A DNA stretch of 64,000 bases from a phage: sequence record OZ335961.1; one strand, written 5' to 3'. Positions 17,678 through 40,727 of the stretch are shown here, piece by piece. Made by a program: the position numbers and the translations under genes. Under the pieces are notes generated by a model. The model worked only from the letters and a program-made list of their open reading frames with translations, had not been told where the DNA came from and ran no database searches. Numbering within the stretch: position 1 is the stretch's first letter; the number at the start of each line of letters is the position of its first letter.

Positions 17678-19491
17678 TGGTGTTTAACCCTATGCATGAT
17701 TTCTTTATTTTTGCCGAGATTAAATCCGCGTTCGTTCGGATTTCCCAAATAACCACAAGTTCTTCTTATTGTGTTCATCTTTTTAGGATCAGTTTCTCCA
17801 CAAATAGAACAAACAAATCCGTTTTCAGTAGGAGTCATTTCATGTGTACTTCCGCATGTAAAACATTTATCTACTGGCATATTAACACCAAAATAATCTA
17901 AATGTTGTGCAGCATAATCCCATACAGCCTCAAGACCTTTTAAGTTATTTTTCATATCAGGAAGTTCAACATAAGAAATGTGACCACCTGTCGCAATGAA
18001 ATGATATGGTGCTTCTCGAGAAATCTTTTCAAACGGAGTAATATTTTCTTCTACTGAAACGTGGAAACTGTTAGTGTACCAGCCTTTATCAGTAACATCC
18101 TTTACACTTCCATATTTTTCAGTATCAAGTTTACAGAAGCGATAGCACAGGTTTTCAGCAGGTGTAGAATACAAACTAAAAGCAAAACCGGTTCTTTCAG
18201 TCCACTGTTTAAGACGAGCATTCATTTTAGTCAAAATTTCCTGTCCAATATCACGACCGACAAGAATATTCAATTCGTGAATACCAATGTATCCTAGGGA
18301 CACTGAACTTCTACCGTTTTTAAATAACTCAATTATGTCGTCATCAGGTTTAAGACGAACCCCGAATGCACCTTCTTGGTAAAGAATAGGAGCAACAGTC
18401 GCTTTAACTCCTTTTAAGGAACTAATTCTACACATCAAAGCTTCAAAACACAAATCCATTCGTTCATTGAACAATTCGGCAAATTTCTGTTCATTGAATT
18501 GTGTTCCAATATAAGAATCTAACGCAATGCGAGGAAGATTTAGTGTTACAACGCCAAGATTATTACGTCCATCAAGAATTTCATTACCAGTCGAATCTTT
18601 CCATACACTTAAGAAACTACGGCAACCCATTGGAGAAACAGGAATAGATGAACCGGTGATAGCTTTATTGTTCTTAGCTGAAATAATATCAGGATACATT
18701 CTTTTGCTTGCACACTCTAGAGCAAGCTGCTTAATATCATAGTTCGGATCGTCTTTATAAAGATTGACACCCTCTTCAACGAACATAACAAGTTTAGGGA
18801 AAATAGGAGTTATCCCATCACGACCAAGGCCTTTAATACGATTTTTCAGAATTGCTTTCTGAATCATTCGTTCGGTCCAGTCAGTTCCCGTACCAAACGT
18901 AATTGTTACAAAAGGCGTTTGTCCGTTTGAACTAAAGAGAGTATTTACTTCGTATTCATAAGCTTGGAATGCATCGTATACGTCTTTTTCTGTTTTAGAT
19001 TGGGCGTAATTCAACGCATCAGCGATTTGCCATTTTTCTGCATCCTCAATATGTTTTGCATAGGTGCGTTTAACATAAGGAGAAAGTACTTTATCTACAT
19101 TCGCAAAAGTCGTTCCGCCATATTGATGAGAAGCAACCTGTGCAGTAATTTGTGCCATAATTGCAGTAGCAACGCCGATTGATTTAGGAGTTTCAATCTG
19201 TGCATTACCGAGCTTAAATCCGTTTTCAAGCATTCCTTTTAAATCTACTAAACAGCAATTAGTAAATGGAAGAGCAGGGGAATAATCAATATCATGGAAA
19301 TGGATAATTCCGCTTTCATGCGCTTTCATAATAAAAGACGGGACCATATTTTTGGCAATGTGTTTAGACACAATACCAGCCATAAGGTCCCGTTGAGTTG
19401 GAAAAACACGAGAATCTTTATTAGCATTCTCGTTCAAAAGGTCTTTATTAGTTTTATGAATCAATCCTTCAATTTCTTTTTCAATTGTCAT
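17674..19491 (-). CDS. nrdD: Anaerobic ribonucleotide reductase NrdD (glycyl radical enzyme), uninterrupted
   Basis: 605 aa continuous ORF; C-terminal glycyl radical motif RTCGYLG; no intron detected. Confidence 0.95.
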   Translation of the reverse strand: MTIEKEIEGLIHKTNKDLLNENANKDSRVFPTQRDLMAGIVSKHIAKNMVPSFIMKAHESGIIHFHDIDYSPALPFTNCCLVDLKGMLENGFKLGNAQIETPKSIGVATAIMAQITAQVASHQYGGTTFANVDKVLSPYVKRTYAKHIEDAEKWQIADALNYAQSKTEKDVYDAFQAYEYEVNTLFSSNGQTPFVTITFGTGTDWTERMIQKAILKNRIKGLGRDGITPIFPKLVMFVEEGVNLYKDDPNYDIKQLALECASKRMYPDIISAKNNKAITGSSIPVSPMGCRSFLSVWKDSTGNEILDGRNNLGVVTLNLPRIALDSYIGTQFNEQKFAELFNERMDLCFEALMCRISSLKGVKATVAPILYQEGAFGVRLKPDDDIIELFKNGRSSVSLGYIGIHELNILVGRDIGQEILTKMNARLKQWTERTGFAFSLYSTPAENLCYRFCKLDTEKYGSVKDVTDKGWYTNSFHVSVEENITPFEKISREAPYHFIATGGHISYVELPDMKNNLKGLEAVWDYAAQHLDYFGVNMPVDKCFTCGSTHEMTPTENGFVCSICGETDPKKMNTIRRTCGYLGNPNERGFNLGKNKEIMHRVKHQ

Positions 19492-19961
19492 TTTAAACTC
19501 TTTCTAAGCTGCTTCTTAAATGAAGCTATTAATTGTGTTTTAGTGTCAGATTCATTATATTCAAATCCTCTTTGAAGCATCTCAGCCATCATTTCCTCTT
19601 TTCCTAAACGAGAAAATTCCTTTGATTTATCTCCAACGAAGTTAGGGTGAATATTATTTTGGGTGTAATCGGATTTTAAATAAGTAAGTAAATTTTCTAA
19701 CCATTCAAGATAATCAACACCTTGTCCCTTTAAGCCAGAACGATTGAATTTATGCTTCATTTGACCTTCTGCAGCATTACAGAGATTACAGAGCAATCCA
19801 CGTACCTTTCCTGCTTTTGGTCCATTTAATTCATGGTCATGGTCAAGGTGATTAGCTTGAACATCAGGATTTAGTTCTCGTTGGCAAATTAAGCATTTAC
19901 CGTTTTGTGCATCATAAAATTTCTGTTTTTCTTCTTTGTATAATTTGCCAGTCAATAACAT
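19488..19961 (-). CDS. 49: Endonuclease VII (Holliday junction resolvase) gp49
   Basis: 157 aa, matches T4 gp49 (MLLTGKLYKEEKQKFYDAQNGKCLICQREL...). Confidence 0.93.
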   Translation of the reverse strand: MLLTGKLYKEEKQKFYDAQNGKCLICQRELNPDVQANHLDHDHELNGPKAGKVRGLLCNLCNAAEGQMKHKFNRSGLKGQGVDYLEWLENLLTYLKSDYTQNNIHPNFVGDKSKEFSRLGKEEMMAEMLQRGFEYNESDTKTQLIASFKKQLRKSLK

Positions 19962-20003
19962 AATAAAACCCTTACCTTGAATAGATAAGGGTATTTATTA
20001 TTT

Positions 20004-37070: not shown

Positions 37071-37349
37071 TTATTCTTTAAATCTAATCAATTTATTCAT
37101 AGACTTTGAAACTTCTGCACGGACCTCATGTAGGTTTTTAAGCTGTTCAAGACGTTGCTCATAGTAAGCAATTTCATCTTCTTCAAGACAGTCCTGTGAA
37201 TCTTCTTTAAGATAACGTGCATAGTCCTGGAAAGCTTTACGGACTACTTCTTGGAAGTCATCAAGACTTTGAATTTTCTTAGGAGCAACAGATACACGAC
37301 GAGGGGCAGTATAATACTCATAACCAAACCCTGCGCTTAATTGAGCCAT
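37071..37349 (-). CDS. Hypothetical protein
   Basis: ATG 37349 ([13 protein letters not shown]...) coupled to upstream stop; ORF-track start 37391 overlaps the upstream gene. Confidence 0.5.
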
Positions 37350-37615
37350 TAGTATTTTTCCTCTGGTTGGAACACAGCACGACAAGCCCACATACTGGCT
37401 TCTTTGAGTTTCGTTTTAGCAATAGTTAACTGATCGAGGCTTTCAGCATAATTCTTCGTGAATTCACAGTCTTCACAATTATCTAGTGCTTCCCAGAATT
37501 CATCATATAAAGCATCAAAGATAAGTCCTAAACGAACTTCAGCATCTTTGATAGCATTCACTTTACTGATTTTATCGTCAGTATGTGGCTTATAACCTTT
37601 AATATCTTCAATCAT
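37349..37615 (-). CDS. Small acidic protein at the T4 vs.4 position (possible Acb2-like sponge)
   Basis: 88 aa; position in the regB-ipII gene block; identification from gene order only, not sequence-verified. Confidence 0.4.
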
Positions 37616-37829
37616 ATTCTACTTCCTCACCAGTGCCCAAATCATATTCAACTAAACGAATAGGTTCATGAATGCCATATCCTTGAACAGAAATTTCTGT
37701 TGTAGGATAAATTCCATTAATATCACCCATGTTCCATGCTTCATTAAATTGCTGTTCGCCTGAATTACTAAACCATTCGGCGAAAGCATTTAACACATCT
37801 TCAGAACCTTCAATAATTATCTTTGCCAT
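37608..37829 (-). CDS. Hypothetical acidic protein
   Basis: 73 aa tiled ORF. Confidence 0.5.
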   Translation of the reverse strand: MAKIIIEGSEDVLNAFAEWFSNSGEQQFNEAWNMGDINGIYPTTEISVQGYGIHEPIRLVEYDLGTGEEVEYD

Positions 37830-38191
37830 TACAAGCTCTCAGTAAAGGTACGAGCAATAACGTCGCGTTGCTGTTCCGGAGTCAGAGAGTTAAAGCGAAC
37901 TGCATATCCGGATACACGGATGGTCAGCTGCGGATATTTTTCCGGATGCTTAACTGCATCTTCCAGAGTTTCACGACGCAGAACGTTAACGTTCAGGTGT
38001 TGACCACCTTCAATTTTAACTGTAGGTTGTGTTTCAATTTCAATTTCACGGGTGTGCAAACCGTAGAAAATTTCTGGGTCTACAAAAGAGTCCTCTTTAA
38101 AGGTTTTAGAAACAATAATTCGTGCTTGAATACCATCTTCAAAATAAATAGTACCTTTATGTGTGCCTTCAAGAATTTGATATGCTTTCAT
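37829..38191 (-). CDS. Autonomous glycyl radical cofactor (GrcA/YfiD-like)
   Basis: 120 aa; C-terminus [29 protein letters not shown] matches E. coli GrcA glycyl radical region. Confidence 0.85.
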
Positions 38192-38198
38192 ATAAACC

Positions 38199-38528
38199 TC
38201 AATTAGAAAATAAATTTATCCAAGATTGCTCTTTAATTAAAAATGGCTCAGAATCATATGCCATTAAACTTTGGGTGATTAGTCCTTTAAAAGGTCCATC
38301 AATAAATTCCATGGTAAAATACGGAATTTTATTCATTAATCTTGCATTAGGAGCAGTACACAAAACTCTGCATCCTTTGAATACGCCTTTTTGTAATTTG
38401 TACTGCTTAGGATAAAATTCGCTCAAGACGTTATTATTTGCTAAAATTTCAAAATGATTCACCAATTTATTTTTAATAGTTTTTGGCGAAAAATAAAGAT
38501 ATTCGAAAAGTTGCGTATCTGTCATCAT
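38199..38528 (-). CDS. Hypothetical protein
   Basis: Likely start [12 protein letters not shown] near 38528. Confidence 0.45.
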
Positions 38529-39112
38529 TGCATTCCAATTACGAAAAACTGCGGACGAGTAATACCACCAATGCAGCATTTACTATTGCAGCAGTGTTGC
38601 ACAGTTTCAATATGAATATCATAAATTTTATCCATATCAGGAGATTTAACAGGCTCATCGATTATATACAAAATTCGAGAAAGCGATAAACCTCTGAACT
38701 TGCTACCTCTATTACCAACAAAACTACGGACAGAATCGGTAAATAAGCGGAATCGAATATCATCGCTAGAATAACGAGAAAATTCTTTTTTAATGTGGCC
38801 CGCAGAAATTTTAGCGTAAGCTGAAGTATTAGAAAGAACAATAACTGTTCCACCATCATATAACCAATTAGCGGCAAAATTAGTTACTGCAGTTGATTTA
38901 CCAGATTGACGTCCACCATCTAGTCGAAGTGTGCAATACTGTTTGAGTAAGTCTTCAAATGGTGGGATATAATCGTTTTTACAAATTTCTTCTACTCTAG
39001 CATCAGAATGGTGTGTAAAAGCATTCATCAGGGATAGATAAGGACCAGTTAAAAATGTTCTCATTTTATTCTCTCTAAATTTGGGCCATTCCATGGCGCA
39101 TGAATTATCCAT
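38525..39112 (-). CDS. P-loop NTPase of unknown function at the position where T4 has denV
   Basis: Walker A GGRQSGKST, Walker B-like ILYIIDE; likely start MRTFLTG at about 39064. Confidence 0.55.
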   Translation of the reverse strand: MDNSCAMEWPKFRENKMRTFLTGPYLSLMNAFTHHSDARVEEICKNDYIPPFEDLLKQYCTLRLDGGRQSGKSTAVTNFAANWLYDGGTVIVLSNTSAYAKISAGHIKKEFSRYSSDDIRFRLFTDSVRSFVGNRGSKFRGLSLSRILYIIDEPVKSPDMDKIYDIHIETVQHCCNSKCCIGGITRPQFFVIGMQ

Positions 39113-39205
39113 TTCTGTATTTACCCATTACCGCACTTGGGCTCGACCTTATTACAGGTTGGCGGGAATCCCTCATAGAATCATGAGGTCCAGCTTGTTC
39201 CCATG

Positions 39206-39508
39206 TTATTTGCCTTTAATTACTTTAGCTGCTTCGATAGCCGCTTGCTGAAGGTCATCCATAGACATACCGAATTTAGAAGCAAAGTTATCAATTTTCT
39301 TTTCGACGGCATTCAAAGGCTTGGCCTGTTTACCTTCATTAGCGCCAGGAAGAGCGAGAATACGCTCTTTGTCAATATAAAGGCTTACAAGTTTCTTACG
39401 GTCTTTATCGGACAAATCATGAAATGAATGGGCCTTTTTATTTATAGCGGCTTCTAATTTACCTGCACTCACTCGCGCTTCAGTAATAAATTCTTGATAT
39501 GTTTTCAT
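39206..39508 (-). CDS. ipII: Internal protein II
   Basis: 100 aa; N-terminal capsid-targeting sequence MKTYQEFITEA; adjacent to ipIII and e as in T4. Confidence 0.75.
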   Translation of the reverse strand: MKTYQEFITEARVSAGKLEAAINKKAHSFHDLSDKDRKKLVSLYIDKERILALPGANEGKQAKPLNAVEKKIDNFASKFGMSMDDLQQAAIEAAKVIKGK

Positions 39509-39549: not shown

Positions 39550-40125
39550 TTAATTACCACGGGCTGCATTAGCAACGGCGTAAGCGTACTGAACATTAGC
39601 GTCTTTAAACGTACCTTTAGAGGTATCTAGTTCTGCCTTAAAGCCGCCTTTAGTCATAACCTCAGCGAATTCTTTACGGAAAGCCATTGCATCAAGACCT
39701 TTCCATGTCGATTTGTGCTTGGCGAATTCAAGACCAGCGTAGTTGACAGCCTTAGCCAATTTATTGTCAATAACCCATTTACCTGCTTTAGGCACAAACA
39801 CCGGGCCTTTCTGTTTAGAGAACAGTTTTAAATTCCAGCGACGAAGATCACCGTCAGCTTTAACAAAAGCTGCGTCCAAGTTACTAGCAACAACATCTTG
39901 AATATGGCCAAATTTAAGCCCATCAACTTCAATATTTAGATCGGTACGCCAGCGAAGTCCTTCCCAAGCGAAAGCTTTAAAGTCGGAAGCTTTTGTAGCT
40001 AAGTATCGTTCAATAGGGGCTGTTTTAGGGTCAAAACCGTTTCCTCGGTAAGTCCACTCATCTTTATTAATGCCTTTGGCCTTTTCCACAGAAGCTTCAG
40101 CGATAAATTCTTTATACGTTTTCAT
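39550..40125 (-). CDS. ipIII: Internal protein III
   Basis: 191 aa; capsid-targeting sequence MKTYKEFIAEA; basic protein. Confidence 0.75.
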   Translation of the reverse strand: MKTYKEFIAEASVEKAKGINKDEWTYRGNGFDPKTAPIERYLATKASDFKAFAWEGLRWRTDLNIEVDGLKFGHIQDVVASNLDAAFVKADGDLRRWNLKLFSKQKGPVFVPKAGKWVIDNKLAKAVNYAGLEFAKHKSTWKGLDAMAFRKEFAEVMTKGGFKAELDTSKGTFKDANVQYAYAVANAARGN

Positions 40126-40158
40126 GTGTTTCCTTTAAATATTTTAATTAGTAACTGT

Positions 40159-40193
40159 GAATATACTATCACAGTTCTAGAAGAAAGTAAACA
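40159..40193 (-). promoter_or_regulatory. T4-type early promoter upstream of ipIII
   Basis: GTTTACT then 17 nt then TGTGATAGTAT. Confidence 0.5.
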
Positions 40194-40196
40194 ACT

Positions 40197-40727
<531 letters not shown>

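Follow-up and report, generated by a model that had tools for sequence, protein, structure and literature searches.

Has a foreign gene displaced denV, the pyrimidine-dimer glycosylase gene of T4, or has denV simply been lost? This question is raised by a 64,000-nt stretch of sequence record OZ335961.1 (the window, taken from a ~168-kb genome), in which an open reading frame (ORF) for a P-loop NTPase adjoins ipII, where T4 carries denV. A preliminary description, made from the letters of the sequence, proposed a locus replacement. The window is a Tequatrovirus (T4-like) segment, with no identical record among 50,697 phage records and best matches ~95-97% identical to it, and all the genes around the locus lie on the - strand. 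The P-loop ORF is Vs.8, and we consider it very probable that this is an ordinary T4 early block from which the denV cassette has been lost.

Within the 64-kb window, denV is absent. The tblastn searches, for which the DenV of T4 and the allele of phage ECO07P1 served as queries, gave a best E value of 2.3. Moreover, a DenV hidden Markov model (HMM) built from five alleles, used as a test for the Pyr_excise family (PF03013) and searched against all 1,211 six-frame stop-to-stop segments of the window, reached at best 12.7 bits, while the same HMM scores 295 bits on the T4 locus, taken as positive control. The weak match, located at 19491-19994, was rejected as a candidate: it corresponds to endonuclease VII (gene 49) and not to DenV. 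The earlier failure to find denV is therefore borne out for the window; absence from the whole phage genome is what we infer from these 64 kb only.

The P-loop ORF encodes the ortholog of T4 Vs.8 and stands where this gene normally does. In its maximal form it spans 195 aa (38525-39112, - strand), directly downstream of ipII. Across these 195 aa, tblastn gives 87% identity with T4 Vs.8, and 166/179 aa are identical in the conserved core. The ORF also matches PHROG 1488 with an E value of 1.1e-78, covering profile positions 2-177 of 177. In the T4 reference annotation, the gene order is vs.7, vs.8, denV, ipII, ipIII, e, and the position within the e-ip-(denV)-vs.8-vs.7...regB block is kept in the window, in T4 and in the distant phages of loci L011-L015. 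The region is thus the ordinary T4 early gene block e-ipIII-ipII-(denV)-vs.8-vs.7-vs.6 (grcA)-vs.5-vs.4 (acb2)-vs.3 (tadIV-1), minus the denV cassette.

The missing segment was delimited by aligning the coding strand of the window with T4, vB_VIPECOOM01, TB004, SP1 and ECO07P1. On either side, the window is collinear with these five relatives; the denV cassette (~0.5 kb) is all that it lacks. The closest intact relative, vB_VIPECOOM01, has flanks 96% identical to the window and an intact denV; its cassette is composed of an early-type promoter (GTTTAC-N17-TAGTAT), a ribosome-binding site and a 138-codon ORF, and is bounded by two 9-bp TAAATAACA direct repeats whose starts are 478 bp apart, the first copy containing the ipII stop codon and the second the denV stop codon. 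In the window, ipII has its final Lys codon and TAA stop within a single AAATAACA, which runs straight into the vs.8 leader; a deletion between the repeats would be expected to leave such a junction. We suggest that denV would have been lost via slippage or illegitimate recombination between the TAAATAACA repeats. According to blastn, an identical junction exists in only three of the 50,697 phage records (ECO07P1, NHEP36 and CJY920), which have, as in the window, one repeat copy.

Two further relatives retain denV pseudogenes at the vs.8/ipII site (Table 1). The lesions of SP1 and TB004 affect the same denV allele at the same site, and their internal deletions are independent of the 478-bp deletion of the window. 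In addition, a distant T4-like phage (locus L014), whose Vs.8 is only 45% identical, keeps the order lysozyme-IpII-DenV-Vs.8-Vs.7. Considered together, the window junction, the SP1 and TB004 lesions and this gene order point to a recurrent and secondary loss of denV by microhomology-mediated deletion. The gene would have been lost at least three separate times at the vs.8/ipII site, each time between short direct repeats, and the site may be seen as a compact example of accessory-cassette decay in T4-like genomes.

The state of denV varies among the other phages of the group. ECO07P1, SP1 and NHEP36 have an intact T4-type denV (91% aa identity to T4). In ECO07P1 and SP1 it lies beyond ipIII, towards e (between these two genes in ECO07P1); in NHEP36, which has no ipIII match, it is flanked on one side by other internal-protein genes located upstream of ipII and on the other by the e homologue. 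The denV that vB_VIPECOOM01 carries at the vs.8/ipII site is only 77% aa identical to T4 DenV. Because of these different identities (77% versus 91%) and locations (vs.8/ipII versus the second site), two denV alleles and two sites circulate among the relatives. CJY920 has the exact denV-less junction of the window and no denV in its locus; this phage (L017 3532-4397) is also devoid of ipIII, e coming directly after ipII. The internal-protein gene array is variable too, since Shfl2 and T2 carry Ip4 instead of ipII. Shfl2 (and, by annotation, ECML-134 and PST) shows the order vs.8-Ip4-ipIII-e, without denV. The whole T2 genome (AP018813, reassembled from four pieces) gave no DenV match at E <= 1, and two frameshifts distribute its vs.8 among three reading frames (AP018813 61700-62450; L007 11700-12450), two T2 Vs.8 fragments of 57 aa and 110 aa being held in BFVD. 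T2 thus combines the absence of denV with a vs.8 pseudogene. As T2 and the Shfl2 group have no denV, denV-less T-even phages are already known.

Confronted with these data, the displacement of denV by a foreign P-loop NTPase gene does not hold and is extremely improbable. The preliminary description was correct in recognising, beside ipII, a P-loop NTPase ORF with Walker A and Walker B-like motifs, and its abutting ipII where T4 has denV is what makes a replacement conceivable. However, T4 encodes the same protein between vs.7 and denV, so that the ORF is a conserved T4 gene of this very site, the finding which the preliminary description had itself named as refuting its proposal; Vs.8 is present in denV-positive phages; the collinearity of the vs.8 leader with T4 extends as far as the junction; and nothing has been inserted, the window having no extra DNA but only ~0.5 kb less.

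Two points weigh against the loss of denV by deletion: the window represents 64 kb of ~168 kb, and a copy of denV may be located elsewhere, as at the second site of the relatives; and the flanking direct repeats fit an insertion with duplication as well as a deletion. The former would imply that denV has been relocated outside the window, like the second-site copies of ECO07P1, SP1 and NHEP36. Indeed, two of the three phages with the identical junction (ECO07P1 and NHEP36) have an intact denV upstream of ipII, towards e, and SP1 has both a denV remnant and a relocated copy. We nevertheless judge relocation unlikely: the known second site, the ipIII-e spacer, is empty in the window, denV maps at ~59-65 kb in records numbered like T4, inside the region that the window covers, CJY920, whose junction is the same, is without denV in its locus, and T2 demonstrates that complete absence of denV occurs. 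The latter point would make the empty site ancestral, T4-type phages having gained denV as an inserted cassette of promoter and gene that duplicated TAAATAACA. The self-contained cassette bounded by 9-bp direct repeats, together with the two distinct alleles (77% aa identical) and the two insertion sites, would suit such a gain; it is distinctly unlikely all the same, given that decayed denV copies occupy the site in TB004 and SP1, with flanks 97% identical to the window, that denV is kept beside vs.8 in distant T4-like phages (L014), and that neither integrase nor homing endonuclease was found with the cassette. The lack of denV would then be a secondary deletion and not an ancestral empty site.

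Table 1. Coordinates of the features discussed (window positions, unless a relative and its locus are named)
Feature	Position	Strand	Basis or remark
e (lysozyme)	40197-40691	-	ORF call
ipIII-e spacer, 71 nt	40126-40196	-	Second denV site in relatives; empty in the window
ipIII	39550-40125	-	ORF call; adjacent to e
ipII (internal head protein II)	39206-39508	-	93/100 aa identical to T4 IpII; PHROG 7857, E 4.5e-55; upstream neighbour of the junction
denV deletion junction, single AAATAACA	39204-39211	-	Alignments with relatives
vs.8 leader, non-coding	39065-39203	-	DNA-level conservation; frame broken among relatives
vs.8 ortholog, 179 aa	38525-39064	-	Predicted single-domain ASCE P-loop ATPase; maximal ORF to 39112, the added part not being conserved
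Walker A/P-loop GGRQSGKS, aa 50-57	38894-38917	-	Agrees with GxxxxGK[ST]; P-loop Arg-Gln as in T4 gp17 SRQLGKT
Walker B ILYIIDE, aa 131-137	38654-38674	-	Catalytic Glu directly after Asp; preceded by invariant R124-G125
vs.7, 109 aa	38199-38528	-	107/109 aa identical to T4 Vs.7; Pfam PF26834 Phage_T4_Y06J in relatives
vs.6	37829-38191	-	GrcA/YfiD-type autonomous glycyl-radical cofactor; Pfam Gly_radical E 2e-18; 117/120 aa identical to T4 Vs.6
vs.4, Acb2 anti-CBASS sponge homolog	37349-37615	-	Pfam PF24729, E 1.3e-19
vs.3, TadIV-1	37071-37349	-	90/92 aa identical to T4 Vs.3
T4 counterpart of the leader (annotated N-terminal 40 aa of the 219-aa Vs.8)	T4 L001 2466-2585		Reading frame not kept in close relatives
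SP1 denV pseudogene at the vs.8/ipII site	SP1 L002 2615-2735		Start and last ~20 codons left; 347 bp lost between two GACTCG copies
TB004 denV pseudogene at the vs.8/ipII site	TB004 L006 1317-1540		Codons 1-41 and 99-137 left; ~190 bp lost between two AATGG copies
Second-site denV	ECO07P1 L003 3859-4272; SP1 L002 3989-4402; NHEP36 L004 3662-4075		Beside a small extra ORF

The extent of vs.8 should probably be revised in the light of its homologs. All full-length Vs.8 homologs start at M(R/K)TFLT and have a size of about 160-185 aa, and indels of 8 bp, 7 bp and 1 bp break the frame upstream of the 39064 ATG among T4, the window and ECO07P1. For these two reasons, the true vs.8 start in the window is almost certainly the ATG at 39064 (MRTFLTG..., 179 aa). 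Likewise, the T4 reference start, which gives 219 aa, probably lies 40 codons too far upstream, M41 (MRTFLTG) being the true start. The leader (~140 nt) was considered as an RNA element and rejected as such: it has no Rfam match, its fold z-score is -0.40 and no consensus promoter or terminator is found within it. At the other end of the gene, the vs.7 ATG overlaps the vs.8 stop (ATGA), an overlap that is identical in T4, and vs.6 is followed by vs.5, vs.4 and vs.3.

Vs.8 homologs are few and restricted to phages: 5.8 billion proteins yielded 27 clusters, and 1.84 billion cluster representatives, searched with a profile, yielded 50 with E <= 1e-3. Comparison of 19 sequences revealed that D49-G50-G51-R52-Q53-S54-G55-K56 is invariant, as are L132, I134, I135, E137 and P138, while D136 is conserved in at least 90% of them. 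Invariant residues also include R113, R124-G125 and the C-terminal F173..G177..Q179, the protein having two invariant arginines and a C-terminal GMQ. The AlphaFold2 model (pLDDT 78.8, pTM 0.79) consists of one alpha/beta domain with five strands and displays the RecA-like alpha/beta core of ASCE P-loop NTPases. In a Foldseek comparison with the PDB, Deep-Sea Helicase 9 was the top match (E 9.6e-04) and the only one reaching E 1e-3, followed by weaker matches (E 4e-3 to 2e-2) to RecD, the N-terminal domain of phi29 gp16 and the P74-26 TerL ATPase. Motifs and model together show Vs.8 as a predicted 179-aa standalone single-domain ASCE ATPase, and the modelled fold comes closest to helicase RecA1 domains and to the terminase large-subunit ATPase subdomain. 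Proteins of similar build are found in BFVD: jumbo phages and other large phages (201phi2-1, PhiPA3, Phabio, EL, phiRSL1, the Aeromonas T4-likes Aes012 and phiAS5, and Vibrio JSF10) have uncharacterised single-domain predicted ATPases of 150-175 aa that share the Vs.8 fold. PHROG 2586 represents a related family.

The terminase-like nature put forward in the preliminary description stands as a remote relationship only. In an hhalign comparison with the T2 terminase large subunit (gp17 homologue), GGRQSGKS pairs with SRQLGKT ('lsrqlgktt') and RGLSLSRILYIIDEP with RGNSFAMIYIDEC, the Walker B motif of Vs.8 being aligned to 'RGNSFAMIYIDE', and PHROG 2 (terminase large subunit) matches Vs.8 at E 5e-6. 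However, Pfam Terminase_6N remains below its cut-off, and Vs.8 has no C-terminal RNase H-like nuclease domain, the last core strand being followed immediately by the end of the protein (aa 179). Because this domain is missing, Vs.8 is not a terminase, and none of the tests made here identifies it as a packaging enzyme. The two tandem RecA-like domains of SF1/SF2 (superfamily 1 and 2) helicases were not found either, only domain 1 of each target being aligned, and with a single RecA domain Vs.8 cannot be a canonical monomeric helicase. The small size and the P-loop would be compatible with a small nucleotide or polynucleotide kinase or a zeta-toxin-like enzyme instead of an ASCE ATPase; this assignment, also mentioned in the preliminary description, finds no kinase or zeta-toxin profile or fold match and is very improbable. 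The PDB sequence search with the Vs.8 profile gave only matches at E ~0.06 or weaker (SRP receptor, DNA translocase coupling protein), and NCBIfam and PADLOC nothing significant. A Pfam 'Conotoxin I-superfamily' match (E 7e-4, below its cut-off) was discarded as spurious, since it comes from the variable, low-pLDDT CCNSKCC. This Cys-rich stretch (~aa 158-164; window 38528-38575 region) probably does not form a conserved metal site, because it varies across the family and is modelled with low confidence.

The genomic context of vs.8 gives some indication of its role. The gene heads a block that also holds vs.4 (Acb2) and vs.3 (TadIV-1). T4 Vs.3 is TadIV-1, a sponge against type IV Thoeris, and the vs.3 of the window is the long, functional TadIV-1 form as described in the same study (PMC13243611), in which vs.3-vs.8, as a single cloned unit, were placed under the 'promoter of vs.8'. 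When the vs.3-vs.8 genes (Part I) were tested singly, only vs.3 impaired type IV Thoeris immunity (PMC13243611). Because vs.4 encodes an Acb2 homolog and vs.3 encodes TadIV-1, the block downstream of vs.8 can be regarded as a putative anti-defence gene cluster. Vs.7 follows Vs.8 in most of the phages examined, and a PF26834 gene follows it in the distant loci L013 and L014; the search for Vs.7 homologs returned few full-length sequences. Vs.8 is predicted to bind and hydrolyse ATP. Since the cleft of a helicase is built from two domains, which a lone RecA-like domain cannot provide, Vs.8 would probably act in oligomeric form or together with a partner, frequently Vs.7. Our best guess, made with low confidence, is that Vs.8 is a non-essential, predicted ATP-hydrolysing accessory factor of the vs.8-vs.3 unit; with similarly low confidence, we suggest that it does not substitute for DenV.

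Several observations weigh against this view of Vs.8. Our literature search on vs.8 yielded no paper or experiment assigning a function to Vs.8. STML-198 has no Vs.7 beside Vs.8, and the partnership is not universal; Vs.8 is dispensable at least in T2, since vs.8 is frameshifted twice there. The tie to terminases is itself weak (hhalign E 0.0025, probability 12%; Foldseek TM about 0.45-0.5), Terminase_6N scoring 14.4 bits on Vs.8 for a cut-off of 22. Vs.8 could be imagined as a counter-defence factor, that is, a pared-down terminase/helicase ATPase module acting as a decoy for terminase-sensing host sensors or as an antagonist, itself ATP-dependent, of a defence complex. We hold this to be quite improbable; if true, the 150-175-aa mini-ATPases of jumbo phages would constitute a broader anti-defence family. 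As a phage-restricted uncharacterised mini-ATPase in an operon rich in anti-defence genes, Vs.8 would reasonably merit inclusion in a knockout or defence-panel screen.

Concerning the consequences of the deletion, unless denV lies outside the window, no pyrimidine-dimer glycosylase would be made, and the predicted ultraviolet (UV) sensitivity of the phage is T2-like, above that of T4 (T2 being classically about twice as sensitive as T4). T2 is more UV-sensitive than T4 since it is without v (denV) function, a classical difference between the two phages which reportedly involves Streisinger's u gene and Harm's v gene. The absence of denV from T2 agrees with this greater sensitivity, and the connection between denV and UV sensitivity made in the preliminary description is a reasonable one, a whole T2 genome being without the gene. 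The presence or absence of denV is already known as an accessory-gene polymorphism of T-even phages. The result therefore matters little beyond correcting a misreading, the P-loop gene being a standard T4 ORF.

Compared with known systems, Vs.8 resembles the terminase large-subunit ATPase subdomain (T4 gp17 N-subdomain I; Terminase_6N, PHROG 2) but is without N-subdomain II and without the nuclease domain. It also resembles the RecA1 domain of SF2 helicases and translocases (Mfd, DEAD-box, RecG), from which it differs by the lack of RecA2 and of helicase motifs IV-VI. The nearest counterpart is T4 Vs.8 itself (NP_049732; PHROG 1488), an uncharacterised conserved early ORF product that is 93% identical to the window protein over 179 aa and shares with it the strand, the motifs, vs.7 downstream with the ATGA overlap and the ip genes upstream. 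T4 differs by an annotated length of 219 aa, its additional N-terminal part being out of frame in the window, and by denV, which sits between vs.8 and ipII. Finally, T2 and the Shfl2/ECML-134/PST group are like the window in that vs.8, or its remnant, adjoins an internal-protein gene without denV. In these phages, however, Ip4 replaces ipII and the junction sequence consequently differs, and the vs.8 of T2 is frameshifted, whereas the window keeps ipII and an intact vs.8.
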